Assembly: GCA_017404145.1 (NCBI GenBank)
Contig: JAFRCW010000030.1
Span: forward strand, 1,051-65,050
Source: Ruminococcus sp.
GTDB lineage: Bacteria > Bacillota > Clostridia > Oscillospirales > Acutalibacteraceae
Reading direction: 5' to 3'
Length of the DNA: 64,000 bases
Shown: piece by piece, positions 32,093 to 51,495 of the stretch
Position numbering within the stretch: the first letter of the stretch is position 1
Layout: the number at the start of each line of letters is the position of its first letter
Made by a program: the position numbers and the translations under genes
Notes under the pieces: model-generated
Databases searched by the model: none
Told to the model about the DNA's origin: nothing
Seen by the model: the letters and a program-made list of their open reading frames with translations, nothing else

Positions 32093-32125
32093 AGAAAAGC
32101 CCTCAACACGTATTTGGCTGAGGGC
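32093..32125 (-). terminator. Rho-independent terminator (minus strand)
   Basis: The minus strand reads GCCCTCA-N13-TGAGGGC followed by TTTTCT. It lies just downstream of the arm-B promoter/core. Confidence 0.5.
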
Positions 32126-32143
32126 TGATTTCTACACTTTTGT

Positions 32144-32420
32144 TTATTCCCATTCGCTTAATTCGTTTTAATACTAAACATATTAGTTTAGTATTAGTGG
32201 TTTTTGATGCATCTTTTACCGCTATTCTGCCTATTATTTTTGGCTTCAAATTATAACAGTATCAAAACAGTATCAACGCTACTGCAATCATTATAGCAGA
32301 AACAAGAGTAAAATCAACACTTTAAGGCGATAAATCGTTTGTAATTTTATATTCTGACTAAATCGAAATAGTGTAACGCTTTTAGGTTTCAAAAGGCACT
32401 GTTTATGCGCTCTTTGAGGA
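32144..32420. repeat. ~275-bp element-end arm, copy B (inverted relative to 3073-3347); starts with core TTATTCCCATTCGCTTA
   Basis: See arm A. A third, more diverged copy in the same orientation lies at 49513-49720. Confidence 0.8.
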
Positions 32421-32468: not shown

Positions 32469-33497
32469 TTATCCTGTAGAATTAATATCTTCCAAAGGGA
32501 ATGTTACTTGCCAAAAACCTTCTGTTTTATTACTGCAAGTGACGAACTCTCCGAAAGCAGTATAGTTGTTGATTTCGTAAGGCGTTATATCATAAATAAT
32601 CTCATCATAACTGCCGATTTCTTCATCATCAAAAAATGATACGTCAAAGTATTCAGCTTTTTTCCCGCTTTTATCTAACAGCGTTATATATCCGTGATTA
32701 TCATAGTTTATAATATCCGTATAGTATACTTGGATATGAAGCTTGTTGTCTATAAAGCCCATATTTGTAACAGTTACGCCATCAACAGGAGAAACAATAC
32801 CTTCATCCACAGGAACTAAACACTTTGTATCAGCAAGAGCGTCGAGATCTAAATCTGTTCCGCTGGCTCCTCTAAACCATTCCGGTGTAAATGTATCCTT
32901 TACCTCGACAGCTTTGCTTAAATCCAGTTCTGATAACTCGCCCTCGAATTTGCTTTTTTTGCTGATGAACTCTCTGAAACCAAATGTGATTTTTTTACCT
33001 CCGATTTCTCTATCATTCGCCTGAGTAATATTGATTAGAAATGTAGCCGTATTTGCTTCTTTATCAAAAGATACTATCTGACAGGATGCGAACGAATCGA
33101 AGCCCCGGTTGATATAATAACTGTCAAATAAGTCTGTAGTTTCATCTATTCTGTTCTGATCTGTCAAATCCTGTAACGAAATATAGATTGCCGCTTCATT
33201 TTCATATACGGCAGCGGATACCACTTCCATCTTAATTCCGTTATCCTCACAGGACATTTGAACAGGCTTCAACATTTGCGCCAGACCGGGTGATATCTGA
33301 TACACTAATTCATAGATGGGATTCACCGTTATAGCAAGCACAGGCACTGTTATTGTTATACAAAGTATAACTGCTACCGCAATAACAATACTTTGCTTAA
33401 AAGATTTCTTTTTGGTTTTTACTGTAAACAGCTTTGCGTTTGTTATCTTATTATCATCTATCTCGCCGATAGCATCAAATAAAATATCAGTTTTCAA
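32469..33497 (-). CDS. Anti-sigma factor-like membrane protein (DUF4179-type)
   Basis: 11-nt overlap with the sigma gene. A short cytoplasmic N-terminus, one TM (IVIAVAVILCITITVPVLAI) and a large extracytoplasmic domain. Confidence 0.55.
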   Translation of the reverse strand: MKTDILFDAIGEIDDNKITNAKLFTVKTKKKSFKQSIVIAVAVILCITITVPVLAITVNPIYELVYQISPGLAQMLKPVQMSCEDNGIKMEVVSAAVYENEAAIYISLQDLTDQNRIDETTDLFDSYYINRGFDSFASCQIVSFDKEANTATFLINITQANDREIGGKKITFGFREFISKKSKFEGELSELDLSKAVEVKDTFTPEWFRGASGTDLDLDALADTKCLVPVDEGIVSPVDGVTVTNMGFIDNKLHIQVYYTDIINYDNHGYITLLDKSGKKAEYFDVSFFDDEEIGSYDEIIYDITPYEINNYTAFGEFVTCSNKTEGFWQVTFPLEDINSTG

Positions 33498-34053
33498 TTA
33501 TAACACCTTCTTCTAATAGTTTAAAGCGTAGTTTTTTTCGAGTTCGGTATAAAATAGATTTTACTTTGCTTTCACTAAACCTGAATTGTTTTGCGATATC
33601 TGAAATACTGTCAAAGTACCAATACCGACAGACAAAAATATTCTGTTCGCACAAAGGAAGCGTATCTAAAAAACTATCTATCAGCTTTGCAATTTCCTTG
33701 TTTTCAAGTTCTTCTACAACGGTTGTTTTTGCAGGAATGCACTCTGATATTTCTTCATATGCATAGTCGATATTACCTCCGCCTCGCTTTTGTGTTCGCT
33801 TGTCTCGCCATTTTTTCAAACTTATAAAGCGAGTGATTTTACCAATAAAAGTAGAAAGCACGGCAGGTCGATGAGGGGGCATACTGTTCCAAGCGTTTAG
33901 GTATGTATCATTGACACTTTCCTTTGCGTCCTCAGTATCGGATAGTATATTATAAGCGATTGAGTAGCAATAACTGCCATACTTATCGGCTGTTTCTGAA
34001 ATTGCTTTTTCATCTCGTTGCCAATATAAATCAACAATATCTTTATCTTCCAC
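33487..34053 (-). CDS. ECF-type sigma-70 family RNA polymerase sigma factor
   Basis: Region 2 (DIVDLYWQRDEKAI...TYLNAWNSM) and region 4 HTH (SISDIAKQFRFSESKVKSILYRTRKKLR). Confidence 0.85.
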   Translation of the reverse strand: MEDKDIVDLYWQRDEKAISETADKYGSYCYSIAYNILSDTEDAKESVNDTYLNAWNSMPPHRPAVLSTFIGKITRFISLKKWRDKRTQKRGGGNIDYAYEEISECIPAKTTVVEELENKEIAKLIDSFLDTLPLCEQNIFVCRYWYFDSISDIAKQFRFSESKVKSILYRTRKKLRFKLLEEGVIIEN

Positions 34054-34396: not shown

Positions 34397-35614
34397 TTAC
34401 TTGATATATGAAGATACTCTTTTTGCGCTTTTAAATAAATCAATATTCTTATCGAAATCATATTGCTCTATTGCCTCTTCGTTTGCAAAAGACAGAACTG
34501 AAGTATATCGTGGTTTATCTTCACTTACATTGGCAAGTTTAATGCGGTATTTATTGCCATCAGTGATTATATCTTCAAACACACAATTAAACACATAGCA
34601 TATTGTTGGTAATTCAAGTTTTATTCCCATTAATTCTATTGTTTCAATAGAATGGAATCGAAAAAATACTTCTTTCCCTATATTTTCATGTACATGGTCA
34701 TTAACGTCTTCTAATCCGTTAACATAGTCGACGTTATACCGAGAAACAACTGGTGTTGAGTTGATTAGATTTTGATAAAGCCTTTCAACTTCGCATGCAA
34801 GGTTAAAAGAAATGTTTTCTTGATGGGGAATAAATTTGCAGTTAAGAACGGTTTCTATCTGAAGTAGTTTTTCCCAAAACTGAATTGAATCTTCGGAGAA
34901 ATAATGCTCTTCTTTATTATTGATACTACTTAATGGAGTGCCATTAATACACAACGTTCGATCTAAGAACGCATTAAATATTCTCATTGACGAAATAACC
35001 TCTTCAACTGTTTTTATCATATCAGCTTTTGTATTTATTGTGAAAGATGAAGAGTGATTATGATTATCGATGGTAAAGTGAATATAAATGTATTCACTTT
35101 CTAATGATTCATAAACCATCCTGTGAATACTGTTATCAGGTATTCTGTGAATCATTATATCCACAGAAACCGTACCGGCGGACAGTTTAATTGAATGAGG
35201 TTCAGGAAACTTTTGAGGAGACATAAATCTTTTAGTTTCCATTATGTCAATTGGATCTTTAGGACGGCAAAATAAAAGTTTTTCAGAAATATTCTCACCG
35301 TTGATTGTAACATTCTCTCCATCTACAGGAACCATTTCAATTGGTGTTTGAGAATTATACATATATTCTAACAGTTCATTATATGTGTATTTCTCTCCAA
35401 GTATCTCTTTCTGTGATTCGTTTAGCTTAGGTGTGAAGCCGCCTATTGTTAATGAATCAGCTTTTTCCGGAACAACAGTGCAAAAACCATCTGATAATTG
35501 TTCATACTTGATTCCTTCAGGTAAAGATTTACTTAAATAATCAACAAAGGCGTCGGGTAAACGTTCTTCAGAAGGCTTAGTTAAATCTTGTATTTTGTCT
35601 GGGTTAATAAACAT
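34397..35614 (-). CDS. Unknown 405-aa protein, possibly an AbiGii-like partner
   Basis: No catalytic motif recognised. Its ATG overlaps the stop of the upstream gene (TAATG). Size and pairing match lactococcal AbiGii. Confidence 0.35.
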   Translation of the reverse strand: MFINPDKIQDLTKPSEERLPDAFVDYLSKSLPEGIKYEQLSDGFCTVVPEKADSLTIGGFTPKLNESQKEILGEKYTYNELLEYMYNSQTPIEMVPVDGENVTINGENISEKLLFCRPKDPIDIMETKRFMSPQKFPEPHSIKLSAGTVSVDIMIHRIPDNSIHRMVYESLESEYIYIHFTIDNHNHSSSFTINTKADMIKTVEEVISSMRIFNAFLDRTLCINGTPLSSINNKEEHYFSEDSIQFWEKLLQIETVLNCKFIPHQENISFNLACEVERLYQNLINSTPVVSRYNVDYVNGLEDVNDHVHENIGKEVFFRFHSIETIELMGIKLELPTICYVFNCVFEDIITDGNKYRIKLANVSEDKPRYTSVLSFANEEAIEQYDFDKNIDLFKSAKRVSSYIK

Positions 35615-36435
35615 TAGAAATCCCCTTTCGCCTCATCCCAAATTATTATTTTGGATACAAGTTTTATTTTGTCGCTTTGAGGTATTTCAATCCTATTTAT
35701 TGAATCAATTAACTGATTAAAATCACTTTGATTCTCAACAATAAGATATTTTATATCTTGATAATTAAACTTTAGTGCTACATCGTTGTATTCACGTAAA
35801 GAATCATTGAGCTTATTGATATATTCCGATCCCATACCATCATTAATAATGAATGGAGGATAATCAATAGAGGAGAGATCTGGGACATATCTCCATTCAC
35901 ATTCATCAGTAAAACACTTAACGTCCTCTTTTTTTGTGCGCCTGTTTCGTGATTTCCCAGAGTAAGGCTTGTAATATAGAAGTTGATGATAAATGAAGGA
36001 CTTTAATTTTCTCTGTAATACCGTTTCTCTTTTATAGGTTTTATTCATTACATCAGAAAAAACCATTGTAGCTTCTTTTGCAAGCTTAGAGTCGGGATTA
36101 AGATAATGAATGGGCTGAATGTAATTTTTCATACCCCATTCTTTTGAAAATGCAATTCCACATGCCCCATAATAATCTATATGATCGCCTAATTGATGGA
36201 GCTTAATATCGCAAAAACACCTCATTGGAATTGATAGATAGTTAATATTTTTTATTTTGAGATACTTAACATCCTCATTGCAATATCGAGCAGGAATTCT
36301 ATTATGCACAATAATATCAATTAACCACTCAACTTTTTCCATGAAATGAAAGAGAGTGTCTGGTTGCAGAGTGGAAGAAGTATGCTGGCTATTACCGATG
36401 CTTTCAACATTATTTAAATCTATTCGGTTACTCAT
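35614..36435 (-). CDS. AbiGi-like / DUF2971-like protein
   Basis: N-terminal TLFHFMEKVEWLIDIIVHNRIPARYCNED...IPMRCFCDI...YGACGIAFSKEWG resembles the AbiGi family signature as I recall it. Start placed at MSNRIDL (RBS GAGGA). The ORF track extends to 36456. Confidence 0.45.
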   Translation of the reverse strand: MSNRIDLNNVESIGNSQHTSSTLQPDTLFHFMEKVEWLIDIIVHNRIPARYCNEDVKYLKIKNINYLSIPMRCFCDIKLHQLGDHIDYYGACGIAFSKEWGMKNYIQPIHYLNPDSKLAKEATMVFSDVMNKTYKRETVLQRKLKSFIYHQLLYYKPYSGKSRNRRTKKEDVKCFTDECEWRYVPDLSSIDYPPFIINDGMGSEYINKLNDSLREYNDVALKFNYQDIKYLIVENQSDFNQLIDSINRIEIPQSDKIKLVSKIIIWDEAKGDF

Positions 36436-36624
36436 GGTTATCCTCATAATCAACATAGTTATGAGTTAATTATATAAATACTGACTAATTCTGTCAATCG
36501 TTAATATTACAAAACTTTCATACAAAAGAATAAAACTGTAACCAGAAAATAGTTGATAACAAGAGGTTAATGTGGTATGCTATTTTTATATTACAATACT
36601 ATTAAACTGTAAGAGGAAAATAGC

Positions 36625-37230
36625 ATGGTGAGTAATTATGAAATTGCTAAAGCTGTCATAACTGAAAATGACGGTATTGCGACAACACTCCAACTGAAAA
36701 ATGCCGGTCTTCAGAATTATGAAATCGGAAATCTATATAAGAGCAATCTGATCAGCAGAATAAGACAGGGTTTTTATTGCCTTCCGGATGAACTAATCAG
36801 CGACGAACAGCTATTGTCTACCGTTTTGCCGGAAGGAATCGTATGCTTGGAATCTGCGCTATATCATTATGGTTATAGCGACTATACACCATCGTCATGG
36901 GCGCTTGCGGTTCCGAGGACGATCTCTCAATCAAAGCTAAAAATACATGGTCTTGCTATTACACCCCATTATGTTCCTGCATCAAATTATTCATTGGGAA
37001 AGACTTCTTCTGATTTTAACGGATACATTCTCCTGATCTATGATAAAGAGAGAACCATATGTGATTGCTTTAAGTATCGAAACCAAATGGATAGCGAAAC
37101 ATTTGCAAAAGCAATTAATGCGTACTGTGCAGATAACCAAAAAAACCTGACTATTCTATCAAAGTATGCAAAACAACTTAGAGTATATAAAAAGGTTACT
37201 GAAATGATGGAGGTACTATTGAATGGCTGA
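36625..37230 (+). CDS. AbiEi-family type IV toxin-antitoxin antitoxin
   Basis: N-terminal wHTH ...GIATTLQLKNAGLQNYEIGNLYKSNLISRIRQGFYCL, followed by the AbiEi C-terminal domain. Overlaps the next gene by 8 nt. Confidence 0.7.
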   Translation: MVSNYEIAKAVITENDGIATTLQLKNAGLQNYEIGNLYKSNLISRIRQGFYCLPDELISDEQLLSTVLPEGIVCLESALYHYGYSDYTPSSWALAVPRTISQSKLKIHGLAITPHYVPASNYSLGKTSSDFNGYILLIYDKERTICDCFKYRNQMDSETFAKAINAYCADNQKNLTILSKYAKQLRVYKKVTEMMEVLLNG

Positions 37231-38074
37231 TAAAGCAGCGTCCGTTCTTGCGAGATTGAAAAATAAGTCGGTTGAATCCGGACGGAGTTATCAATTGTGC
37301 TTACAACTTTTCTGTCAGGAAGAGTTTTTGCGTCGTCTGGAAAAATCAAAATATGTAGAAAACTTTGTACTGAAGGGCGGCTTATTCATCTACACGCTGA
37401 CTGAATTTGAGAGCCGCGTAACAATGGATATAGATCTCCTTCTTCAAAAACTTCCGAATACGCCTGAAGAACTTGAGCCAATTATTATGGATATCATTTC
37501 CACCGATACCGAAAACGATTTTATTATGTTTGAGTTAAAAGGCATACAGCCTATATCAATAGCAAAAAAATACGCTGGCATCAGCGCATCATTAGTTGCT
37601 GTCATAAAAAACACGAGAACACCAATTAAGATCGATTTTGGTGTGGGCGATGTGATCGTTCCAACAAAAGAGAAACGATCTATACCAACTCAGCTAGATG
37701 ATTTTGAAAAGCCGGTTATTAATACATATTCGCTTGAAACGACGATTGCGGAAAAGATAGACGCCATACTTGATTTGATGGAATATTCAAGTCGTATGAA
37801 AGACTATTATGATCTTTACTATTTACTGACGCACTTTGAATTTGATAATGATACACTTGCAGAAGCAATGAAGAAGACTTTTGAAAATCGGAACCATCAC
37901 TTCACCATAGAACAATATAAACAAGTGCTGCGCTTTGGTGATGATGATGCCATGCTAAAGAAGTGGAATGCTTTTATTAAGAAAACCAAATTACAATTCA
38001 TTGATTACCGGATCGTAATAGAGACGATAGACTCTGAGATTGGCAATGCTATTACATATGTGCTGAAAGGATAA
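37223..38074 (+). CDS. AbiEii/AbiGii-family nucleotidyltransferase toxin (DUF1814)
   Basis: FVLKGGLFIYTLTEFESRVTMDIDLLL nucleotidyltransferase motif. 283 aa. Confidence 0.75.
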   Translation: MADKAASVLARLKNKSVESGRSYQLCLQLFCQEEFLRRLEKSKYVENFVLKGGLFIYTLTEFESRVTMDIDLLLQKLPNTPEELEPIIMDIISTDTENDFIMFELKGIQPISIAKKYAGISASLVAVIKNTRTPIKIDFGVGDVIVPTKEKRSIPTQLDDFEKPVINTYSLETTIAEKIDAILDLMEYSSRMKDYYDLYYLLTHFEFDNDTLAEAMKKTFENRNHHFTIEQYKQVLRFGDDDAMLKKWNAFIKKTKLQFIDYRIVIETIDSEIGNAITYVLKG

Positions 38075-38079
38075 ACAAT

Positions 38080-40572
38080 ATGAAAAGGATAGACATTATT
38101 AATAGAATCGGCGACAATTACCACATTGGAAATACTGAAACGGGTGAATTCAGCTATGTTCAAGCATTAAAAACTGTTGGAAAAGATATTAAGGACTATC
38201 AAAAAGGATCAACCGGCACAAATCATCAGTTTTTGGATATTAGGTTTGAGAATGAAAGATTGGCTATTCTTGTAGAATGTAAGAATAAATTCAGCAAATG
38301 GGATAAAACAAAAATCCAAAGCCAGTTACAAGACTATGTTCGTTATGAAAAAGCATATTCTGACAAGAAAATCGTTGCGATATTAGCTGAAACTGATGGT
38401 GATGATGTTTGGGTTTGGTATGGTCAATCTGTAATTATTGATGATGAACACCGAGTAGAAGATGAAAAGGTCCTTCGTCCTTTTGCTGACTACGAGAATC
38501 TGTGCTTTGGTAGAGTTAACGACAAAATCAAAGTTGTTGACTCAATAAAAACGCTTAACGAGAAACTTCATTCTGACGGCATTAATGAGAAGTTACGTAG
38601 CCAGTTTGTAGGGACTTGTCTTCTTGCGTTAAAGAACGGACTAGTATACAATGATGTAAAAGAAACTATTAATCCTTTAACTGGAAAGAAAATGTCACCG
38701 GAAAAAGTAATATTAAAGAGCATAAAGGACATCTTAGAAGGATTACTTACTCGTGGTGGAGATTTAAATAAAGCGGGAAAAATCGCTGTTTTAAACAATA
38801 AAGTATTAGGGGATCAAGATGTTAGAGACCTTACATATGAAGAATTAAAGGACGTTCTTTCTTTTATTGACGATTACGTTGTTCCGTATATTAATGACAA
38901 AAATACCGCAGGGCAAGATTTGCTAAACTTATTTTTTACAACATTCAACAAATATGTTGGAAAGTCTGATAAGAATCAGGCGTTTACTCCTGATCATATC
39001 TGTGATTTTATGAGTAAAGCAGTTGGTGTTAATAAGAATTCAAGAGTGTTGGATCCTTGCTGTGGAAGTGGTGCCTTCTTGGTTAGGGCAATGACTGACG
39101 CAATGGATGATTGTGATACCGAAGAAGAACGTGAGAAAGTAAAGAAGAATCAGATTTTTGGTATCGAATATGAGGAAGGAGCTTATGGCCTTTCTTCTAC
39201 CAATATGCTTATTCACGGCGATGGTAATTCAAATGTGGTACAAGATTCAATGTTTAAACGTGCAAAATGGATAGCAGATAATAATATAAACGTTGTATTA
39301 ATGAATCCACCTTATAATGCCACCAAAAAATGTTGTGACCCTCAGTATACAAAAAATTGGAGTGTGAACAAAAAAGAAGATCCATCAAAAGGTTTGCATT
39401 TTGTTGAATGGGTAGCGAAACAAGTACCCTCAACATGTAAAATGGCCGTCTTATTACCTATGCAAGCTGCTATTGGCAATCAAGGTGACACAGAGTTATT
39501 TAAAAAAAAGATGTTAGAAAAGTATACACTTGACGCAGTCTTTTCATTACCTGAGGATATGTTTTATCCTGGAGCATCAACTGTTGCATGTTGTATGATT
39601 TTTGATCTTTCTCAGAGACATGAAAGGTCAAATCGCGAAACCTTTTTTGGTTATTTTAAAGATGATAAGTTTGTAAAAAGAAAAGGGCTAGGTAGAGTAG
39701 AAAAAACAGATGATGAAGGTAGCAGTTTATGGACTCAAACAGAAGAAGTCTGGCTTGATTTATACAGAAATAGAAGAGAGCTTCCTGGCTTTTCGGTTAA
39801 GCACAAAGTAACCTATGAAGATGAGTGGCTTGCAGAAGCGTATATGGAAAAAGACTATTCTGGTTTATCAATATATGATTTCTATAATACTATTAACCTT
39901 TTCTTTTCCTATGTTATTGCAAAAGGATCAATTCATAACACTGACAAAAAATGGATGGATGAATATATTAGTTCTCTATATGGTGAAGTCAACAATAACG
40001 CAAAACAAAATAAGGCATTAGACCTTAATACCGGTGAATGGAAAGAATTTAGAATAGGATCCTTGTTTGATATATATCCTACAAAAGCATATAGTGGGAT
40101 GTCTTATAGAGACTTACACGATGGTGGAAATATTCCTGTAATCGCAAACAGTGCATTAAATAATGGAATCAAAGGTTTTTCAACTTTAGAACCAACCGAA
40201 AAAGGTGGCATAATAACATTTAGTGATACTACAGAAGACAACACGTTCTTTTATCAGCCAGAACCTTTTATCGGGTTTGCACACGTTCAAGGAATGCATG
40301 CAATATCACATGAATGGACAGAAAAACAATTACTGTTTTTAGTGACAATACTTACCTTTGCAAACGCAGATTTGTTTAACTACGGAAGAAAAATGCGTCG
40401 AGATACCATTTCAGACAGCTTTATCAAATTGCCTGCAAAAAAAGATGCTAATGGGTATGTTATTGATGATAATAAAACATTTTCAAATGACGGTTATATC
40501 CCAGATTGGGAATGGATGGAAGACTACATAAAATCCTTACCAAACAACGCTAAAAAGCAAGGTGATATGTAA
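38080..40572 (+). CDS. Single-chain restriction-modification-like enzyme (PD-ExK-like N-domain + N6-adenine methyltransferase + HsdS-type TRD); type IIG-like
   Basis: N-terminus has D...ExK (FLDIRFENERLAILVECKNK). Methylase motif I is VLDPCCGSGAFLV and motif IV is VVLMNPPYNA. The C-terminus (EWKEFRIGSLFDIYPTKAY...IPVIANSALNNGIKGF) is like a type I S-subunit target recognition domain. Confidence 0.6.
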   Translation: MKRIDIINRIGDNYHIGNTETGEFSYVQALKTVGKDIKDYQKGSTGTNHQFLDIRFENERLAILVECKNKFSKWDKTKIQSQLQDYVRYEKAYSDKKIVAILAETDGDDVWVWYGQSVIIDDEHRVEDEKVLRPFADYENLCFGRVNDKIKVVDSIKTLNEKLHSDGINEKLRSQFVGTCLLALKNGLVYNDVKETINPLTGKKMSPEKVILKSIKDILEGLLTRGGDLNKAGKIAVLNNKVLGDQDVRDLTYEELKDVLSFIDDYVVPYINDKNTAGQDLLNLFFTTFNKYVGKSDKNQAFTPDHICDFMSKAVGVNKNSRVLDPCCGSGAFLVRAMTDAMDDCDTEEEREKVKKNQIFGIEYEEGAYGLSSTNMLIHGDGNSNVVQDSMFKRAKWIADNNINVVLMNPPYNATKKCCDPQYTKNWSVNKKEDPSKGLHFVEWVAKQVPSTCKMAVLLPMQAAIGNQGDTELFKKKMLEKYTLDAVFSLPEDMFYPGASTVACCMIFDLSQRHERSNRETFFGYFKDDKFVKRKGLGRVEKTDDEGSSLWTQTEEVWLDLYRNRRELPGFSVKHKVTYEDEWLAEAYMEKDYSGLSIYDFYNTINLFFSYVIAKGSIHNTDKKWMDEYISSLYGEVNNNAKQNKALDLNTGEWKEFRIGSLFDIYPTKAYSGMSYRDLHDGGNIPVIANSALNNGIKGFSTLEPTEKGGIITFSDTTEDNTFFYQPEPFIGFAHVQGMHAISHEWTEKQLLFLVTILTFANADLFNYGRKMRRDTISDSFIKLPAKKDANGYVIDDNKTFSNDGYIPDWEWMEDYIKSLPNNAKKQGDM

Positions 40573-41822
40573 TGAAAATCAATTTAGTTGAAATCAAGAA
40601 TTTTAGAAAACTTTTAAGCTGTAGAATAGACTTTAGCGAAGAATCTACTGTTTTTGTGGGAGCAAATAACAGTGGAAAGACCTCTGCTATGCTCGCCTTA
40701 ATTAAGTTTTTAAAAAAGCGATCTATTGTATTAGATGACTTTACTATCTCCAATATTGCTTCAATTCAAAAACTGGGAGAAAAGTATGTTGATGAAGAGA
40801 CCCCTCATAGTCCATCTATTAGCGAATGGAGTGAACTGTGTCCTTTTTTAGATGTATGGCTCGATGTGAAAAGCGATGAGTTAAGATATGTCGCAAATAT
40901 TATACCAACGCTTTCATGGAGAGAGGGGAAAATAGGGATTCGTCTGGTTTTTGAGCCCGATAATGTTGAAACCTTATATAGAGCATATATTGATGCTTAT
41001 AATCTATCTAAAGAAAGATCTAATAAACAAGTTAAACTCTGGCCTGCTTCTTTACCTGACTTTTTACAAACGAAAATCTCATCTTTCTTTAAAATCAACG
41101 CTTATATTTTGGACGAAAGCAAACTCGTTTCTCCTCGCGGAGATAATACTGCGCAACCACAAGAGACACCTTATCATTCTTCTCCGTTGAATTTTGACCC
41201 TTTCAAAAAGTTAATAAGAATCGATACCATTTCCGCTCAGAGATGGCTTGATGATTCAGACAGTGATTCGTCTGAAAAGACTAAAGATAACAGTCTTCTT
41301 TCACAGCAACTTCGAGATTATTATGATAGGCAGTTGGATCCTGAGCGAAAGCCTTCCGCCTCTGACATAAAAGCGCTAAAAGAAGTACAAAAAGCAAAAG
41401 ATGTCTTTGACACCCAGATTACCAAACGGTTTCAATCTGCAATGAATGAACTATCTACCTTTGGGTATCCGGGTAAACGAAATCCAAAAATAATAATTGA
41501 ATCCAGAATGCAAACAAGCGATATTTTGACCCACAGTACTTTGGTAAAATATCCTATTTACAATGACGGAACAGATGATTATAAATTATCAGAAAAATAC
41601 AATGGATTAGGGTATCAGAACTTGATATCTATGTCCTTCAGATTAATGAGTTTTCGTGATTCCTGGATTAATGGAGATAAAAGAAAGCCAGATGATGAAA
41701 CAATTGAAATGATTCCTCCTATTCATTTAGTGTTGATCGAAGAACCTGAAGCACATTTACACGTTCAAGTTCAGCAAGTGTTTATTAAAAACGCATACAA
41801 AATTCTTAGAAATAACTCTTAA
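40572..41822 (+). CDS. OLD-family/ABC-type ATPase, N-terminal portion (ends at an in-frame TAA)
   Basis: Walker A GANNSGKTS, Walker B-like HLVLIEEPEAHLH. Its ATG overlaps the stop of the upstream gene (TAATG). Confidence 0.7.
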   Translation: MKINLVEIKNFRKLLSCRIDFSEESTVFVGANNSGKTSAMLALIKFLKKRSIVLDDFTISNIASIQKLGEKYVDEETPHSPSISEWSELCPFLDVWLDVKSDELRYVANIIPTLSWREGKIGIRLVFEPDNVETLYRAYIDAYNLSKERSNKQVKLWPASLPDFLQTKISSFFKINAYILDESKLVSPRGDNTAQPQETPYHSSPLNFDPFKKLIRIDTISAQRWLDDSDSDSSEKTKDNSLLSQQLRDYYDRQLDPERKPSASDIKALKEVQKAKDVFDTQITKRFQSAMNELSTFGYPGKRNPKIIIESRMQTSDILTHSTLVKYPIYNDGTDDYKLSEKYNGLGYQNLISMSFRLMSFRDSWINGDKRKPDDETIEMIPPIHLVLIEEPEAHLHVQVQQVFIKNAYKILRNNS

Positions 41823-41852
41823 CTAAAAGGCAATAGTCCGTATACAACACAG

Positions 41853-42788
41853 ATGGTAGTATCTACACATTCTAGTACTATTGCTCTCGAATCATCATTT
41901 ATTAATTTGAGATATTTTAGAAGAACAAAAAGTGAGAATGGTCTTCCAATATCAAATGTAGTAAATCTTTCAGATGTATTTGGAGTGTCAAATAATACCA
42001 CAAGATTTGTAACGAGATATTTAAAAACGACACATTGTGATTTATTCTTTGCGGATGCAGCTATTCTAATTGAGGGGGCAGCCGAAAGAATATTTATGCC
42101 GTATTTTATTAAAAGATATGAACAACTAGGGGAGTCATATCTTTCTGTATTAGAGATAGGAGGACGGTATGCTCACTATTTCAAGCCGCTAATCGATGTG
42201 TTGGGTATAACTTGTTTGGTTATTACAGATTTGGATTGTTCTCATAAGAAAGGAAACAATAGAACTGCGTCAATTCAACCTCAAAGAGGACAAGGATACT
42301 TTTCATCAAATCCGACAATAAAGAATTGGATTATTCAGAATGAAGATCTGGATTGTTTACTTGACTTAAGCTTTGAACACAAGGAAGAAACTAATCTGAA
42401 TACTCCTAATGCGAAAACGAGGATTGCGTATCAAACCCCCATAAAAATCACTCTTTCCAATGGGGCTGAGAACGAGTTTATTCCAACCACATTTGAGGAT
42501 TCCTTGGCTTATTCCAATTTTGAATCCTTCAAAAAAATGCGAAAAACTGGCTTAATAAATAAAATAAAAAAAGCATTCAATGAAACAGATGCTACAACAA
42601 TTGCAAAGAAAACATATGAGGCAATAAAAGCAAAAGGTGTTGATAAAGCAGAATTTGCCTTAGATCTGATTTTTTATAAAAATCCAGAAGATATTGTTAC
42701 ACCAAATTACATAGATGAGGGATTGAATTGGCTGCAAGAAGAGTTGAAATCGAAAGATTCTAGCGATTTCTTGGAAAAGGAGGTGTAA
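41853..42788 (+). CDS. OLD-family C-terminal portion: ATPase H-loop plus TOPRIM nuclease domain
   Basis: Same frame as 40572-41822. QMVVSTHSS (ABC H-loop), TOPRIM ILIEGAAE ... VITDLD. Confidence 0.65.
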   Translation: MVVSTHSSTIALESSFINLRYFRRTKSENGLPISNVVNLSDVFGVSNNTTRFVTRYLKTTHCDLFFADAAILIEGAAERIFMPYFIKRYEQLGESYLSVLEIGGRYAHYFKPLIDVLGITCLVITDLDCSHKKGNNRTASIQPQRGQGYFSSNPTIKNWIIQNEDLDCLLDLSFEHKEETNLNTPNAKTRIAYQTPIKITLSNGAENEFIPTTFEDSLAYSNFESFKKMRKTGLINKIKKAFNETDATTIAKKTYEAIKAKGVDKAEFALDLIFYKNPEDIVTPNYIDEGLNWLQEELKSKDSSDFLEKEV

Positions 42789-42791
42789 ATA

Positions 42792-44651
42792 TTGGAAACT
42801 GTGCCTGTAATAACGGATGATAATAGGGATGATACAGCGGATGAAATAATCGACAATTGTCTAAGTATAAATAAACCCAAAAGCTTTTTTATGTTTGCCG
42901 GTGCGGGAAGTGGAAAAACACGCAGTTTAGTAAAAGCACTAAATAGCATAAAAACTAAGATTGGAACAACCCTTTTACAAAGTGGAAGAAAAGTGGCTGT
43001 TATCACATATACTAATGCGGCAAGTGAAGAAATCAAGCAAAGAGCTCAATACAATCCCCTTTTTGAAATATCAACTATTCATAGCTTTTCATGGTCATTA
43101 ATATCGGCTTACACTAATGATATTCGAGATTGGCTAAAAGCAAAACTTGAAAAAAGAATTGATGAGTTAACACAACAGCAGTCAAAAAGTAGAAGTAAAA
43201 CGACAAAAACCTATTTAGAACGCGCTGAAAAGATCGTTAAGCGTACGGAAAGACTTCGTTACTTAGATACTGTAAAACGATTTATCTACAATCCAGATGG
43301 ACTAAACCTTGAAGCTAATTCTTTGGATCATGCGGAAGTAATTCAAATAACTGCTGATTTTTTGACATCGAAGCCAACCTTCAAAGCTGTTTTTATAGAT
43401 AAGTATCCTATTGTTTTGATTGACGAAAGCCAAGATACAAAGAAAGAACTTATATCAGTTTTGTTTAGCGTACAGCAAGAATACAAAGATAGATTTTTGC
43501 TTGGTTTGTTTGGGGATACGATGCAGCGAATCTATTTAGATGGAAAAGAAGACTTAGCTGAATCAATTCCTGATGACTGGGAAAAGCCCTGCAAAGTTAT
43601 GAATCACCGCAGCCAAAAAAGAATAGTAGACTTGTGCAATGACATTAGAAAAGATGCTGACGGTATTCAACAATGCTCCAGGACAGATAAACCTAACGGA
43701 ATTGTTCGAGTATTTATTACAGATAACGAGGATGCTTTTGCCTGTGAACAAATTGCCAGAAATAGAATGAGCAGAATAACTGGTGATAATGATTGGGAAG
43801 ATATCGAAAAGATAAAGAGCTTGACAATTGAACATAAAATGGCTGCTTCACGTTTGGGATTTAAATCATTTTTTGATTATATGAATAATGTGAATTCATA
43901 TAAACAAGGATTAGTAAAAGGAGATTTATCAGTAATAAGCCTTTTTACACATATTCTTATCCCTTTACAAGATGCTTATTATTCTGACAATCAATTTGAA
44001 ATTATGAGAATCATAAGAGAGCATTCTATAGATTTTGATCGTCATAAAGATTCATTAACCTCTGGTGTTATTGAATCGCTAAAGCAGTCTGTCGAAGAGT
44101 TGCTCTCCCTATTAAGCAATGAACATAGTACATGTAGAGATTTACTTAATATAGTGTATGAAAAAAGACTTTTTCAACTGCACAAGGATTTGCTTAGGTT
44201 ATTAGAGGATTTCCCATCCGAAGATGATAATGAATATGATAAATACATTAATCTAAAAAAAGCTCTAGATTCTGAGTTCATTGAGATTAAGAGATACTAT
44301 ACCTATGTCCAAGGAAAAGCAAGCTTTGATACACATCAAGGTGTAAAAGGACTAGAATTTGATCGTGTAATGGTTATTATTGATGATAAAGAATCAAAGG
44401 GAACTACATTTAGTTATAACAGACTATTTGGAGTAGAAGATAAAACAGAGAGAGACAGAAAGAACGAAAGAGAAGGTAGAGAAACCTCGGTGGATCGTAC
44501 GCGTAGATTGTTATATGTTACTTGTAGTCGAGCAAAAGAAAGCTTAGCAATAGTGTACTATACTCCGTCAATTGATGACACCTATAAAGCGATACTTTCT
44601 ACAGATTGGTTTACAGAAGAAGAAATAGAAGCATTAAGGGCAGAGGTTTGA
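42792..44651 (+). CDS. UvrD/PcrA/Rep-like superfamily-1 helicase (GajB-like)
   Basis: Walker A FAGAGSGKT, DExx VLIDESQDT, C-terminal GVKGLEFDRVMVI and LLYVTCSRAKESL. TTG start 8 nt after AAGGAGG. Confidence 0.8.
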   Translation: METVPVITDDNRDDTADEIIDNCLSINKPKSFFMFAGAGSGKTRSLVKALNSIKTKIGTTLLQSGRKVAVITYTNAASEEIKQRAQYNPLFEISTIHSFSWSLISAYTNDIRDWLKAKLEKRIDELTQQQSKSRSKTTKTYLERAEKIVKRTERLRYLDTVKRFIYNPDGLNLEANSLDHAEVIQITADFLTSKPTFKAVFIDKYPIVLIDESQDTKKELISVLFSVQQEYKDRFLLGLFGDTMQRIYLDGKEDLAESIPDDWEKPCKVMNHRSQKRIVDLCNDIRKDADGIQQCSRTDKPNGIVRVFITDNEDAFACEQIARNRMSRITGDNDWEDIEKIKSLTIEHKMAASRLGFKSFFDYMNNVNSYKQGLVKGDLSVISLFTHILIPLQDAYYSDNQFEIMRIIREHSIDFDRHKDSLTSGVIESLKQSVEELLSLLSNEHSTCRDLLNIVYEKRLFQLHKDLLRLLEDFPSEDDNEYDKYINLKKALDSEFIEIKRYYTYVQGKASFDTHQGVKGLEFDRVMVIIDDKESKGTTFSYNRLFGVEDKTERDRKNEREGRETSVDRTRRLLYVTCSRAKESLAIVYYTPSIDDTYKAILSTDWFTEEEIEALRAEV

Positions 44652-44728: not shown

Positions 44729-45883
44729 TCAACGCTTGTTATATGTGTTTAATCCCTTTGTTTCTTTCGCTTGTCCTATTAGACTATTGAGCTTGGCTTT
44801 TCCGAGAGATTTTTCCAGTAGCCGATAGGATTTGTTTTGCTCGCGGAGCAGGGTGTTGGTCTCTTGGAGTTGAGTGTTTTTATATTTGAGGTGGCTGTTC
44901 TCTTGGGCAAGTTGATCGTACAGCCTGCGGAGATGGTAGTAGTTATCCCAGCCCTCAACGCTTTTAGCAATTACCGTTTTAATGAGGGATTTCAGACGTC
45001 TGATTAGCGGCTCTACGATCTTTTGCTTATAGCTTTTGGCAGACATCAGGGGCTGCGGCTCCGGCAGTTGGAGCTTTGGGCTGGCGGTGAGTTCGCGCTC
45101 GATGTGATCGAGAGAGACCTTTGCTTCTTTGACCTTTCCGACCGTCGCTTTCAGTTCTTTGATCTCCATTTGCTTATCTTCGATCTGCCGTTCGAGCTTG
45201 GCAACCTCTTTGGCTCGCTCCTGCTTTTTGAAGTCGAGGACGGATAGGTGCTGCTCATGGGTGCCTTTCTGCTCCCACTCGATACCGTGCCGTTCCATGA
45301 TTTGTGCAAGCACTTTCTTTTCGGAGAGGATCCAGCGGTTCAGCTCGTTGTCATCCCTGCCCTGTCCTTCAAAGCCTTGATGGAGCAAAGCTTTTTTGAG
45401 AGATACACGCGTTTCCAATCCGCGCTTACTGCCGGTTGTGAACGGGATAAAGTCGATATGGAGATGCGGCGTCGCTTCATCCATATGAAGGTGAGCGGAG
45501 AACACTCGGAGATACGGATTTCGTTTTTGGAAACCCTGATAGTATTCATCGAGGATCGTCCTTGCCAGCTCAGCTTGGCTGCCGGTCGCTGACATATCTT
45601 CCTTGTTTCCGATTTGAAAGATGACCTCATGGAATGGCTTTTCCTGCTTGCCGGTGCGGATTTTTTCATAGTAGTTGGGGATCACGCGATCCTTGCGTTT
45701 TTGCTTTGCGTTATATTTCGCCAGCGCATCATCGAACATTTCATGATACACTTTCTTGATTGGCTCATTGCAATAATCAATGTTGAGGTGGGTACGCTCG
45801 CTGTCCACGTTCTCCGTCGTGAAGCTGCGGCTGTTGTGTGTTACGGAGCCTTTACCCACCATAGCGCTTATCGTTCTTTTCAA
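44729..45883 (-). CDS. MobV-family (Pre/Mob) relaxase
   Basis: HLHMDEATPHLHIDFIPF histidine motif and a coiled-coil C-terminus. 384 aa, colinear with 60258-61412. Confidence 0.85.
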   Translation of the reverse strand: MKRTISAMVGKGSVTHNSRSFTTENVDSERTHLNIDYCNEPIKKVYHEMFDDALAKYNAKQKRKDRVIPNYYEKIRTGKQEKPFHEVIFQIGNKEDMSATGSQAELARTILDEYYQGFQKRNPYLRVFSAHLHMDEATPHLHIDFIPFTTGSKRGLETRVSLKKALLHQGFEGQGRDDNELNRWILSEKKVLAQIMERHGIEWEQKGTHEQHLSVLDFKKQERAKEVAKLERQIEDKQMEIKELKATVGKVKEAKVSLDHIERELTASPKLQLPEPQPLMSAKSYKQKIVEPLIRRLKSLIKTVIAKSVEGWDNYYHLRRLYDQLAQENSHLKYKNTQLQETNTLLREQNKSYRLLEKSLGKAKLNSLIGQAKETKGLNTYNKR

Positions 45884-46090: not shown

Positions 46091-47278
46091 TCAATCCGTG
46101 TCAACTGTGTCGGTGCTTAGCACACCCCCACATATGCTGTCACAGGTGTCACGCTTTGACACGCCGCCCATATAGGTCAGCGTGATCTTGCGTCCGTCAT
46201 GCGTCCGCCTGTAGTGATAGGCTATCTTGTATTCATCCATTAATCGGCTGACGTTGACATTCAGTTTTTGCGTGATTGCGTTTGACTTGATGTCAAAGCT
46301 AAGATATTCACATAGCTCTGTCGGTGTTCCACACCATTGAGGATTATCAGTATTTATTCGCTCGGCAATTCTTTCAAGCAACGGCTCCGGTGGTGCTTTC
46401 CAAAGTTCTGTTTCAACTTTGTCCAACACCCAAACAAGTCTTTCAACGTCTCTTTTGAGGAATAGTCGCTGATCTTGTTGATCACGTGCAGAAACATCCA
46501 GAGTTGCGCTGTTGGAGGTGCGCCTGTCCTTTGTAAGAAGGAAGGCACCATCTGCAGCACCGAGTAGGCCGTTGGTTCCGGAGATCATATCGAACTTGTC
46601 GTCGGCGTTTTGCTTTCTGGTATGGTGTACCAGCAGCAAACAAATACCGTGCCTTGAAGCAAGACCTTTCATCGCGGCGATGATTTGGTAATCACTTGCG
46701 TAGCTGTAATTATCGCCGCCTGCTTCACGTACCTTTTGCAAGGTATCAATGATAATTAGAGAAGTATCAGGATATTCTCTAACGAAAATATCTACTTGTT
46801 TGTCGAGCCCTTTACTGATACAATCAGCAGAAACCGCAAAGAAAAGGTTTTCGTTTTCTGCTGTACCGAACATCCGGTACAACCGCTTCTGCAAGCGTGC
46901 GTAATCATCCTCTAATGCTAAGTAAAGCACCGTGCCTTTTCGGACAGGGTAATCCCACAGTTGCGTTCCTGAACTGACATGGTAAGCGAGCTGAGCCATA
47001 AAAAAGCTTTTCCCGATCTTTGGGGCGCCTACAAAGAGATAAATGCCCCGATAGAGCAAGCCGTCGATGACCGGCGGCTTACCCTGATAGGCGTTGTCGA
47101 ACAACTCCGACATGGTAACGGTTTTGAAGCCCGGCTTGTCCGACAGATCCCAATGAAAATTTTTCTTGCAATCGTCAGACAAGTCTGATATACTGTTTTC
47201 ACAGGATTTTTGAAGTGACTGCCTTTCATCTGTTGCCGCAGATGATTTGAGGGCAGTCATTTCCTTTTTGTCGGTCAT
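46091..47278 (-). CDS. AAA_25/RepA-like ATPase (TnpY-like)
   Basis: Walker A VGAPKIGKSF, LALEDD, Walker B LIIIDTLQ, HHTRK. Confidence 0.75.
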   Translation of the reverse strand: MTDKKEMTALKSSAATDERQSLQKSCENSISDLSDDCKKNFHWDLSDKPGFKTVTMSELFDNAYQGKPPVIDGLLYRGIYLFVGAPKIGKSFFMAQLAYHVSSGTQLWDYPVRKGTVLYLALEDDYARLQKRLYRMFGTAENENLFFAVSADCISKGLDKQVDIFVREYPDTSLIIIDTLQKVREAGGDNYSYASDYQIIAAMKGLASRHGICLLLVHHTRKQNADDKFDMISGTNGLLGAADGAFLLTKDRRTSNSATLDVSARDQQDQRLFLKRDVERLVWVLDKVETELWKAPPEPLLERIAERINTDNPQWCGTPTELCEYLSFDIKSNAITQKLNVNVSRLMDEYKIAYHYRRTHDGRKITLTYMGGVSKRDTCDSICGGVLSTDTVDTD

Positions 47279-47673: not shown

Positions 47674-48267
47674 ATGGATAAATGGGATAATACAGCAATC
47701 GGAACAAGGATAAAAAACCTTAGGAAGAATAAGGGCTATACGCAGCAGGAGCTTGCTGACATCATCGGTAAATCTCTGCGGACGCTTCAAAAGTATGAAA
47801 CAGGCGAGATAGAGGTATCCATCGCCGTGGTCAATCAGCTGGCAAAGGAGCTCGACACGACGCCGACGTTTATCCTCGGTTATGATACAGAGATCGAGCC
47901 GATCCGTACCCTTGCCGATGTGATGAACTATCTGTTTCATATCGAGCAAGTCGAAGGACTGGAATTCAGCATCGACGTCAAGCGACCGCCGCGTAACAGT
48001 GAGTGGACTTGCGCGCTGACCTTCAAAGGAAAGAACGTGAATGCCGAGTTAAATCAAGATATGTGTTTATTCTTGGAGGATTGGGGAAGCCAGCGTGATT
48101 CACTCCGTACCTACGATAGCACACAATCCGATTACCGCGAGTGGAAGGAAAGAACGCTCGCGTACTACTCTCCTACTGAGGTAAAGCAAAAAGAGACAGA
48201 GGATCTTAGCGAAGAGGAGAGACGGCAGAAGCGAATCGAGTATTTGAACAGTATAAAGCCAGAATAA
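47674..48267 (+). CDS. XRE-family HTH regulator
   Basis: IGTRIKNLRKNKGYTQQELADIIGKSLRTLQKYETGE. Confidence 0.8.
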   Translation: MDKWDNTAIGTRIKNLRKNKGYTQQELADIIGKSLRTLQKYETGEIEVSIAVVNQLAKELDTTPTFILGYDTEIEPIRTLADVMNYLFHIEQVEGLEFSIDVKRPPRNSEWTCALTFKGKNVNAELNQDMCLFLEDWGSQRDSLRTYDSTQSDYREWKERTLAYYSPTEVKQKETEDLSEEERRQKRIEYLNSIKPE

Positions 48268-48325
48268 CAATCAAATAGGGTAATAAGGAAATCAGGGTCT
48301 GAGATAACATTTGAAAGGAGCAATT

Positions 48326-49402
48326 ATGTCAGTAACCAAAGACGGCAATACAGGCCGTTGGATGTCTCAGATTCGAGTAAAGGATTGGACGGGCAAGACC
48401 GTCCACAAAAAGAAAAGAGGCTTCGCAACCAAACGCGAAGCCTTACAATGGGAGCAGGAATTTGTCAGCCAAGCGACGTCTAGCTTAGGTATGACATTCC
48501 GGGATTTTATCGAGTTATACTTCAAGGATATGGAGCAGCGACTCAAAGCCACAACACTAGCCAACAAGCGATGGATGGTTAATTTGAAGGTGACGCCGTT
48601 CTTCGGCAAGATGCAGCTCAACGACATCAAGCCGACGGATATCCGCCGTTGGCAGAACGAGTTGACCAGCTATCGGAATAAAGACGGCGAGCCGTATTCC
48701 GAAACCTATCTGAAAACCATCAATAATCAGGTGACCGCGATCTTCAATTACGCAGTCAAGTATTATGGGTTGAAAGAGAATCCCTGTCACAAGGCAGGCG
48801 GTATGGGGAAGAAGCACGCCGACGAGATGATGTTCTGGACGAAGGATGAATTCTTGCAATTCATCGAGGCGATGAAAGATCACCCCACCGGTTACGCTGC
48901 CTTTATGACGATGTATTACACCGGTGTGCGTGAGGGAGAGCTGTTGGCGCTGACGCTATCGGACATTGATTTTGAGAACAGCACCATCCGGATCAACAAG
49001 AGCTATCAGCGGTTGAATGGCGAGGACTTGATCACTTCGCCGAAAACGCCGAAGAGCAAACGGATCATCACCATTCCAGAGAGCTTGATAAACTGCTTGA
49101 AGGACTATACCTCTAAGCTCTACAACATTCAGCCGGACGAGCGTATCTTCCCGCATACAAAGTATTATCTCGCCCACGAGATGGACTACGGCTGTGAGAA
49201 ATCGGGCGTGAAAAAGATTCGTATCCATGATATTCGTCATAGCCATGCGGCGGCTCTGATTGAAATGAATGTTGCGCCGAAGCTTTTGCAGGAACGGTTA
49301 GGTCACGAGCGTATCCAGACAACGCTCGATACCTACGGTCATCTATATCCGAATAAGCAAGCGGAAGTAGCCAAGCAGCTCGATGAATTCATGTCAAACT
49401 GA
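48326..49402 (+). CDS. int: Tyrosine recombinase/integrase
   Basis: SAM-like N-domain plus the catalytic region (...GVREGELLAL..., RIHDIRHSHAAALIE, LGHERIQTTLDTYGHLY). ATG 48326 follows AAAGGAG. Confidence 0.9.
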   Translation: MSVTKDGNTGRWMSQIRVKDWTGKTVHKKKRGFATKREALQWEQEFVSQATSSLGMTFRDFIELYFKDMEQRLKATTLANKRWMVNLKVTPFFGKMQLNDIKPTDIRRWQNELTSYRNKDGEPYSETYLKTINNQVTAIFNYAVKYYGLKENPCHKAGGMGKKHADEMMFWTKDEFLQFIEAMKDHPTGYAAFMTMYYTGVREGELLALTLSDIDFENSTIRINKSYQRLNGEDLITSPKTPKSKRIITIPESLINCLKDYTSKLYNIQPDERIFPHTKYYLAHEMDYGCEKSGVKKIRIHDIRHSHAAALIEMNVAPKLLQERLGHERIQTTLDTYGHLYPNKQAEVAKQLDEFMSN

Positions 49403-49717
49403 ATGGCTACAAAAATTTGCTCTCATGTAGCCATTTTGTAGCCAACAAAAAAGAAAAGTCCCGAAGGACGGCTCTATTAAGCCATTCTTCGGGATGATTA
49501 GTGTTTATTTGTTTATTCCCACTCGCTTAGTTGGAAAGAATATGTTTTTGATGATGGTGAATAACCGTATAAAAAGAAAGTTTTTATCAAACAAATATTC
49601 TAATTATACTTAGTTTAACTTCTCTTGGTATCAAAATCGTATCAGTGTTTCTATGAATGTATCATAACACAGATCAATGATAAATTCAACACTTTAAAGC
49701 AAAAAACATTACTGTTT

Positions 49718-51163: not shown

Positions 51164-51495
51164 ACGATCACCTCTGTTAATTATTATAACTATACTTTTA
51201 TATTTTGTCAATAATAATTATAAGTATACTTGAAAATGATAACATAATCTTGAAGGGCAACCATTAGTAGATGTCCTTAGTGACTACTCACAAGGAAATA
51301 CGTTATTACTCCTACTTGCTCCTGATTATCTGAGCTTAAATAGTTTTGTATAGGCGAATTGCCACAGAGTATCAGGAGTGTTTGTAATGCTCATGAAAGA
51401 TAAATGGTTTTCAAGTTATAGAAGGCAATGTGAGATTTTCTTGAAAATCATTATTGTAGGTGATATTCTAATACTATTGAGAAAACTAACTTTTC

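Follow-up and report, generated by a model that had tools for sequence, protein, structure and literature searches.

A mobilisable element of Ruminococcus sp. carries AbiE, a BcgI-like restriction–modification gene and Gabija in one probable defence operon

Immunity genes that follow one another almost without a gap raise the question whether they form a single composite machine or are separate systems that share an operon. In this study, we addressed this question for an array on the plus strand of a 64,000-nt stretch of Ruminococcus sp. DNA (contig JAFRCW010000030.1, assembly GCA_017404145.1), referred to as a whole as the window. The array (36625-44651, ~8 kb) contains six open reading frames (ORFs), which represent five genes in the order AbiEi, AbiEii, restriction–modification (RM) enzyme, GajA and GajB. 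An earlier note on this DNA had recognized an AbiE toxin–antitoxin pair, a type IIG-like RM enzyme and a Gabija-like pair of an OLD nuclease and a UvrD helicase, and had suggested that they might be a composite system in which modification status or the target recognition domain (TRD) feeds the OLD and UvrD proteins. The three module identities are borne out by Pfam and by PADLOC, a check for which the note itself had asked. The composite system is not supported; the modules assort independently, and the position directly 3' of the RM gene, which we call the slot, also holds other systems. We think it probable that the array is a compact defence operon of three autonomous known systems (AbiE, RM and Gabija), in which the RM family is the conserved 5' part and anchors a nuclease-type system that can be exchanged. 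What appears to be conserved is the operon architecture, not a composite machine, with Gabija as the most frequent occupant of the slot and AbiE often in front.

This reading draws on a survey of RM relatives, which covered a single genome of each species and yielded 80 loci (given here as L numbers) with enzymes 47-91% identical to that of the window. In seven of these (L015, L020, L023, L024, L031, L057 and L075), GajA and GajB stand directly 3' of the RM or specificity (S) gene on the same strand. The seven GajA proteins represent three subtypes that are mutually at most 30% identical, while the RM enzymes that precede them share 73-83% identity with that of the window; L015, L020 and L023, with GajA proteins 92-96% identical, are clearly one island that has spread between genomes. 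Within 1.36 Mb of flanking DNA, taken as 10 kb on each side of the RM gene, all GajA (7/7), SduA (4/4) and LmuA (2/2) ORFs occupied the +1 same-strand slot, and a hidden Markov model built from the RM-linked GajA proteins detected no further GajA in this DNA. The adjacency of RM and Gabija is more than chance. The junctions are also alike: in L024, L088, L091, L031 and L075 the conserved RM or S end, SLPYSDRI and the stop codon, is followed by a ribosome-binding site and, after 9-12 nt, by the GajA start, and a distance of 9-13 nt from RM or S stop to partner start is found for SduA (L006, L022, L029 and L030) and for KwaA (L001) as well. LmuA, together with LmuB of the Lamassu system, follows after ~19-31 nt in L032 and L056, and Kiwa, which is in the slot in L001, lies slightly further downstream in L011. 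Less secure or less tightly spaced are a Ppl-like ATPase in L033, which starts 39 nt past S, the GmrSD-like proteins of L064 (11 nt) and L048 (68 nt), and PDC-S60 (L058, 9 nt). CBASS, Thoeris, retrons or similar systems were not seen in the slot of the RM relatives.

Partners of these kinds amount to ~19 cases among the 69 loci with a called downstream gene, and ~50 of the 69 are without a recognized defence partner; a PADLOC summary of the 69 downstream neighbours, the output of which was swamped by GajA models, added only the Kiwa match. The partners are scattered over the RM tree, and the nearest RM relatives of the window carry Kiwa, Shedu or nothing. On the other side of the RM gene, AbiEi and AbiEii are found 5' in eight further loci among the 80. 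The full AbiE-RM-Gabija order is seen in L110, a variant from a different sample, and in L024, where it is built with a different AbiEii family (PDLC02289, 3e-106) and gaps of 4, 49, -23, 12 and -4 nt. The loci are mosaic and mobile, with TnpV, integrases and relaxases. As an observation on the 5' side, a PDC-S01 (AAA_14 and DUF4143) ATPase lies directly 5' of the RM family in L015, L017, L020 and L023.

Viewed from the Gabija side, close relatives of the window GajA (58-73% identical) are in several cases preceded by a type IIB or IIG RM enzyme of a different lineage, which is 50% identical to the window RM in L088, 29% in L091, of a different IIG family in L081 and Eco57I-like in L099; overall, the other RM lineages beside GajA relatives are 26-50% identical to the window RM or Eco57I-like. 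In L102, an Eco57I-like RM gene lies downstream of a distant GajA relative. GajA is found without RM in L083/L085, L092 and the truncated P0001 loci, and no RM gene is present directly 5' of GajA in L083, L092, L100, L101, L103, L104, L106 and L108. Distant GajA relatives (~47% identical) adjoin a metallophosphatase, a PLD-SNF2 protein, an Mrr-type enzyme, DarTG and integrases. A seeming pairing of the GajA relative P0065 with the RM relative P0231 on one contig was rejected, as the P0065 locus is without RM. The earlier note had held that its proposal would fall if the modules were never syntenic elsewhere; synteny is present in the seven loci among 80 and also in L088, L091, L081 and L099. 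On its question whether the trio is conserved as a unit or assorts independently, the survey points to independent assortment, yet with a position-specific +1 adjacency. An obligate composite, the components of which would always be found together, is excluded by these data, Gabija being present in only 7 of the 80 RM loci and many GajA genes having no RM. Because the same slot holds unrelated systems and many GajA relatives have no RM neighbour, we regard the modules as autonomous.

Remnants were also seen. In L086 and L087 (9518-9694), an RM fragment corresponding to residues 33-91 and 68% identical lies just 5' of an intact Gabija GajA, and in L088 (207-410) a C-terminal fragment of AbiEi lies 5' of the RM gene of that locus, where Gabija is intact. 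These decayed remnants suggest that modules have been gained and eroded independently. A 545-aa truncated GajA without GajB (P0001; L095-L098) was found on 23 contigs, on a relaxase/RepA_N element beside an agr-like module; it is apparently another Gabija that persists widely in a decayed form. In L081 (7569-9905), a 778-aa protein, the C-terminal part of which resembles MADS mad8 (4e-14), begins 3 nt after GajB and may be an extra Gabija-associated gene.

The window copy of Gabija has the expected parts. GajA gives Pfam matches to AAA_15 (3.9e-52) and OLD-like_TOPRIM (1e-17), that is, an ABC ATPase and a Toprim domain, and a UvrD/PcrA-like helicase, GajB, follows directly 3' with a 3-nt gap; GajB matches Pfam UvrD-helicase and UvrD_C and has a strong AAGGAGGTG motif 7 nt 5' of its start. 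Only GajB is intact, however. The internal stop that the earlier note had seen in the OLD gene is indeed present, and it should not be ignored as had been done there: GajA is a single frame split into two halves (40572-41822 and 41853-42788; PDLC00093 at 1e-149 and 4e-108, respectively) by a TAA at 41820-41822, codon 417. This position lies in the ATPase domain between the Walker B/D-loop region (LVLIEEPEAHLH) and the H-loop (STHSS), and eight aligned homologues have Leu, Met or Ile there. In the variant L110, the DNA of which is 95.7% identical with the same AbiEii-RM-TAATG-GajA layout, the codon is TTG for Leu and the GajA frame is open to the end of the contig. The TAA is found again in two further assemblies of the element (L093 and L094), which are identical or differ by one single-nucleotide polymorphism in 22.5 kb. 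A sequencing error or recoding was rejected on the grounds of the TAA in L093 and L094, the Leu, Met or Ile in the homologues and the Leu in L110. Judging by these comparisons, the Leu417-to-TAA change is a real nonsense mutation and GajA has been inactivated recently. The ATG at 41853, with which the second half could start, has no good ribosome-binding site, and Gabija is probably inactive in the window copy while GajB is intact.

The description of the RM enzyme as type IIG-like was right but imprecise. Most of the 80 relatives are encoded as two overlapping genes, A (~621 aa) and S (~350-390 aa), and the latter is recognized by PADLOC as a type II specificity subunit. The window enzyme and L001-L010 differ in that A continues into ~210 further residues with a single TRD, which correspond to the second half of the Specificity_II profile of PADLOC and not to the first; in the window enzyme, this match takes in the C-terminal 230 aa. 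The separate S subunit with two TRDs that is found in most relatives is replaced here by the fused TRD, with no S gene. By homology, the protein corresponds to the A subunit of a BcgI-like type IIB enzyme with half an S subunit fused to it. Its motifs D53, E66-x-K68, DPCCGSG and NPPY are invariant in 36 homologues and conserved in at least 97% of 74 homologues. A model of the N-terminal domain (predicted local distance difference test, pLDDT, 78) has a beta-beta-alpha-beta-beta core in which the acidic and lysine residues fall on strands one and two, and the full-length AlphaFold model (mean pLDDT 53) is too poor for use. A fold search with the N-terminal model gave nothing at E <= 0.001, the weak list being mostly PD-(D/E)xK nucleases, and because of this the nuclease assignment rests on motif conservation. 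NCBIfam has no model for the RM N-terminus or the S subunit, and in single-sequence and profile searches of the PDB only type I HsdM chains matched, so that BsaXI and type IIB structures were not reached. We infer that the protein would be a complete RM enzyme which dimerizes to mimic an A2B assembly and reads a symmetric bipartite site. At its C-terminus, the window enzyme ends in SLPNNAKKQGDM before the stop in place of the conserved SLPYSDRI of its relatives, and its last bases (ggtgatatg, in the region 40540-40575) resemble the ribosome-binding-site spacer after the stop in L001 and L003. The TAATG overlap with GajA is probably secondary and arose through loss of the ancestral stop.

The spacing of the genes, which the earlier note had given correctly to the nucleotide, is -8 (AbiEi/AbiEii), 5 (AbiEii/RM), -1 (RM/GajA, TAATG) and 3 nt (GajA/GajB), and at all four junctions a Shine–Dalgarno-like motif lies within the upstream gene: GGAGG for AbiEii, GAAAGGA for RM, AAGGTGA for GajA and AAGGAGGTG for GajB. 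Neither promoters nor terminators fit into the junctions, so that coupled or closely spaced translation is probable. A consensus scan found no terminator-like site on the plus strand between 36625 and 44651. The GC-rich hairpin over the GajB stop codon (Table 1) has no T-run 3' of its stem, and the next gene, a relaxase, is convergent; the hairpin is likely to mark the end of the transcript and may serve as its terminator.

At the 5' end of the array, the 168 nt that precede AbiEi contain only one candidate promoter, which is a consensus match and no more. A 19-nt inverted repeat reaches from its -10 region to the AbiEi ATG; AbiEi may bind there, making the repeat a candidate operator. In Streptococcus agalactiae, AbiEi is autoregulated via inverted repeats in its promoter (PMC7319586). 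Between AbiE and AbiG there is also a 32-nt direct repeat, 78% identical (36521-36552 and 36592-36623), which shares part of its sequence with the candidate operator. AbiEi and AbiEii, a DUF1814 nucleotidyltransferase, overlap by 8 nt as the bicistron of a type IV toxin–antitoxin system; the match of Pfam AbiEi_4 to AbiEi is under its cut-off, and NCBIfam has no model matching AbiEi.

Taken together, the following picture can be proposed for the operon. A single promoter 5' of AbiEi, probably autorepressed by AbiEi, would drive all genes of the array. The RM enzyme, presumably as a dimer on a symmetric bipartite site, would methylate host sites and excise unmethylated sites from incoming DNA. 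An intact Gabija would add a second layer against linear DNA and DNA ends, and AbiE would contribute abortive infection and stabilize the element. The arrangement may be favoured for its compactness on small mobilizable elements, for a shared promoter that is possibly AbiEi-controlled, for stabilization by AbiE, or because 2-3 kb of ~80%-identical RM sequence could be used as a homology arm for cargo swap.

Several points weigh against this picture. That one promoter serves the whole array is a prediction from the sequence; the scan for internal promoters neither supports nor excludes them, the number of promoter-like matches in the array (45) not being enriched over shuffles (44.7), and such a scan is uninformative in AT-rich DNA. 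The sole basis for suggesting that AbiEi may control the whole operon is the inverted repeat. For the RM N-terminus, a PD-ExK-like nuclease fold is putative, the fold search having given no significant match. The survey sampled a single genome of each species together with a small number of metagenome contigs, and the rough value of p ~2e-8 obtained for the slot under a uniform-placement null with five separate Gabija events comes from a crude null that ignores shared ancestry and whole-island transfer. In L015, L020 and L023, moreover, the S-GajA spacer is 186-229 nt, which is enough for a separate promoter.

The recurrence of the slot might also reflect function. BcgI-type enzymes cut out their site with a pair of double-strand breaks (PMC3177199, PMC3592470), DNA termini activate GajB (bioRxiv 10.1101/2023.05.02.539174), Gabija acts on the ends of linear DNA that are free of RecBCD (PMC12407980), Shedu senses DNA ends, a review tabulating both Gabija and Shedu as end-sensing (PMC12904381), and Lamassu binds DNA ends (bioRxiv 10.1101/2025.03.14.643221). 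Breaks made by the RM enzyme could thus give foreign DNA ends which the slot system senses or attacks, finishing DNA otherwise rescued by phage end-protection or by RecBCD/AddAB inhibitors, so that the pair protects beyond the sum of its parts and the operon linkage is selected without any physical coupling. This would be in line with the slot partners, almost all of which are nuclease systems directed at DNA (Gabija, Shedu, Lamassu, Ppl-like and GmrSD-like), with the reported end-sensing or end-binding of three of them, and with an adjacency that is position-specific and recurs with three Gabija subtypes. However, the evidence is purely correlative and the sample small (~19 partner cases in 69 loci), Kiwa, which does not sense ends, is in the slot as well, the partner is missing from most RM relatives and from many GajA relatives, the element persists despite its knocked-out GajA, and the partners could be biased by the defence repertoire of gut Clostridia alone. 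We regard such synergy as possible, if unlikely. A more far-reaching version, in which the RM family and a slot system (Gabija, Shedu, Lamassu or Ppl-like) are a selected two-stage immune operon, with RM cuts licensing the end-sensing nuclease, the RM 3' end acting as recombination anchor and AbiEi perhaps in control, seems doubtful to us.

It is also well known that defence systems cluster in islands, and the array could be no more than such clustering, compacted on a small element, with the recurrences explained by horizontal spread of a few ancestral islands and nothing selected. All loci are indeed mosaic and mobile, L015, L020 and L023 are one spread island, and GajA relatives have many different defence neighbours. 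Yet this would not predict the +1 same-strand placing of every GajA, SduA and LmuA near RM, nor the 9-13 nt junctions shared by three Gabija subtypes at most 30% identical, nor an AbiE-RM-Gabija order rebuilt with a non-orthologous AbiE in L024, and we consider it improbable. As for a composite machine, in which a fusion of methylase and TRD would work with GajA and GajB, and methylation status or the TRD would direct the OLD and UvrD proteins as in BREX, DISARM or MADS, its attraction lies in the TAATG overlap of RM and GajA that is kept in L110, in the recurrent 9-12 nt RM-GajA spacing of the five loci named above and in the weak similarity of the methyltransferase to MAD2. But the RM protein, with an invariant putative nuclease motif and a TRD of its own, seems to be a complete RM enzyme in itself, its family pairs with unrelated systems in the slot and is mostly alone, the same GajA clade is found with unrelated RM lineages or none, the NCBIfam MAD2 and PglX scores are far under their cut-offs, and the overlap in the window looks secondary, the ORF running into what is the post-stop spacer in relatives. 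We hold this explanation to be very improbable, and retain as the probable one an operon of autonomous systems with an exchangeable slot behind the RM gene.

The array is, on the evidence of its flanks, part of the AT-rich cargo of an integrative mobilizable element of ~17.4 kb (Table 1). Two imperfect att-like direct repeats, made up of two repeat families with spacings of 17369 and 17372 nt, are proposed to bound it. GC content is 32-37% across 32-45 kb versus 45-48% in the backbone at 45-51 kb, which agrees with the earlier remark that the cargo is more AT-rich than the backbone. Divergent from the AbiE array, the cargo has an AbiGii/AbiGi pair, preceded by a perfect TTGACA-17-TATAAT on the minus strand (36497-36469); AbiG is a fourth defence module, so that the cargo carries four modules rather than three. 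An extracytoplasmic-function (ECF)-type sigma factor and a DUF4179 anti-sigma-like protein (32469-34053, minus strand) also lie within the AT-rich cargo beside the defence genes. No plasmid matched the 8.4-kb region in a megablast search. Further downstream, a second backbone with a MobV-like relaxase and AAA_25 (60258-63163) has 72% identical DNA to the first over 60316-61609. Between the two backbones are a relative of the PDC-S01 (AAA_14/DUF4143) ATPase at 49718-51211, just outside the element, a DUF2971 protein and two cohesin/dockerin surface proteins (478 and 1472 aa). The region 49718-63163 may be a second, tandem element, and hints at a host among cellulosome-bearing Clostridia.

Table 1. 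Features of the array and of the element that carries it, in window coordinates
Feature	Position	Strand	Basis
Left att-like imperfect direct repeat, proposed left end	32122-32334	.	Pairs with 49491-49706; low-GC cargo begins
AbiGii (34397-35614) and AbiGi (35614-36456)	34397-36456	-	Pfam AbiGii_2 1.6e-45, AbiGi 1.2e-26; PADLOC 1e-79, 8e-87
Candidate sigma-70 promoter for whole array	36553-36581	+	TTGATA-17-TATGCT, extended TG; 9/12 consensus matches
19-nt inverted repeat, candidate AbiEi operator	36577-36626	.	Arms 36577-36595/36608-36626, 84% complementary
AbiEi antitoxin and transcriptional regulator, 201 aa	36625-37230	+	PADLOC AbiEi 4.3e-59, residues 5-200
AbiEii nucleotidyltransferase toxin, 283 aa	37223-38074	+	Pfam AbiEii 1.4e-47; PADLOC 7.3e-88
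BcgI-like type IIB/IIG RM enzyme, 830 aa	38080-40572	+	REase_MTase_IIG 5e-51; N6_Mtase 5e-31; one Methylase_S
RM, putative PD-ExK-like N-terminal domain	D53 38236-38238; E66-x-K68 38275-38283	+	Motif conservation
RM, N6-adenine methyltransferase	38947-39648; DPCCGSG 39052-39072; NPPY 39304-39315	+	N6_Mtase 5e-31
RM, single TRD	40036-40440	+	One Methylase_S domain
GajA, OLD-family ABC ATPase and Toprim nuclease, pseudogene	40572-42788	+	PADLOC PDLC00093
GajB, UvrD-like helicase, 619 aa, TTG start, intact	42792-44651	+	PADLOC PDLC00111 2.5e-230, residues 8-615
GC-rich hairpin over GajB stop codon	44631-44671	+	-27.4 kcal/mol, z-score -3.6 vs shuffles
MobV relaxase	44729-45883	-	Pfam annotation of identical locus L093; NCBIfam MobV
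AAA_25 protein	46091-47278	-	Pfam annotation of identical locus L093
Helix–turn–helix regulator	47674-48267	+	Pfam annotation of identical locus L093
Tyrosine integrase	48311-49402	+	Pfam Phage_integrase
Right att-like imperfect direct repeat, just 3' of integrase	49491-49706	.	Pairs with 32122-32334

A widely transferred RM family that repeatedly heads operons with an interchangeable nuclease-type second system 9-13 nt past its stop offers a concrete, testable case of defence-operon assembly in which a conserved gene would be the recombination anchor. It is also a testable case for the question whether restriction cuts feed the end-sensing Gabija, Shedu and Lamassu systems, for which there have so far been mainly co-occurrence statistics. 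In addition, the slot behind this RM family is a place in which uncharacterized defence genes may be sought.

When compared with known systems, the AbiE module conforms in being a bicistron with overlapping abiEi and abiEii genes (PMC3985639), with an inverted repeat in the promoter region as in S. agalactiae, and AbiE has been shown to stabilize integrative elements (PMC11062541). It differs in that three further genes stand directly 3' here, and the AbiEi-controlled promoter may drive RM and Gabija. Gabija is likewise recognizable by an ABC-ATPase and Toprim GajA followed by a UvrD-like GajB, with very strong PADLOC matches; it differs in its long GajA subtype (~736 aa, PDLC00093), in the nonsense codon, and in having no upstream region of its own and being placed behind RM, and we agree with the earlier note that this coupling is not a canonical Gabija layout. 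We found no paper describing a linkage of RM and Gabija in the literature on Gabija with BcgI or type IIG enzymes.

With BcgI and BsaXI, the RM enzyme shares a putative N-terminal PD-ExK-type motif and a gamma-class N6-adenine methyltransferase (NPPY) in one polypeptide as well as a type I-like TRD specificity, and most of its relatives also share the gene pair of A (~621 aa) overlapping a two-TRD S (~360 aa). Both BcgI (PMC3592466, PMC3592470) and BsaXI (PMC11997821) have an A:B stoichiometry of 2:1 and cut on both sides of their site. In the window, by contrast, A is fused to the second half of S, giving a ratio of catalytic subunit to TRD of 1:1 in a single chain. In this it resembles the single-chain type IIB enzymes TstI, AloI, CjeI and HaeIV, in which, as described for TstI (PMC4027205), restriction, modification and recognition are within one polypeptide. 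The one-TRD enzyme of the window is nearer in logic to HaeIV or to half-HsdS dimers than to TstI and AloI. The latter two have two TRDs, whereas HaeIV reads a symmetric site as a homodimer.

Finally, the operons of MADS, BREX and DISARM likewise unite genes for a methyltransferase, an ATPase, a helicase and a nuclease, and there is a weak MAD2/PglX similarity. However, the RM methyltransferase scores 46.8 bits with NCBIfam MAD2 (cut-off 720) and 16.5 with BREX-1 PglX (cut-off 500), and PADLOC scans of the genes at 34397-44651 gave no match to the signature proteins (PglZ, BrxC, DrmA/B or the mad1-8 set); with scores so far under the cut-offs, membership of MADS, BREX or DISARM was rejected. 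The components here differ in being complete stand-alone systems. All of them are members or variants of known families, namely AbiE, BcgI-like type IIB RM and Gabija, and the array is not a new immune mechanism. What is new, modestly, is the variant of a BcgI-like enzyme that is fused to half an S subunit, and a recurrent operon architecture of RM plus slot in which Gabija is the commonest occupant.

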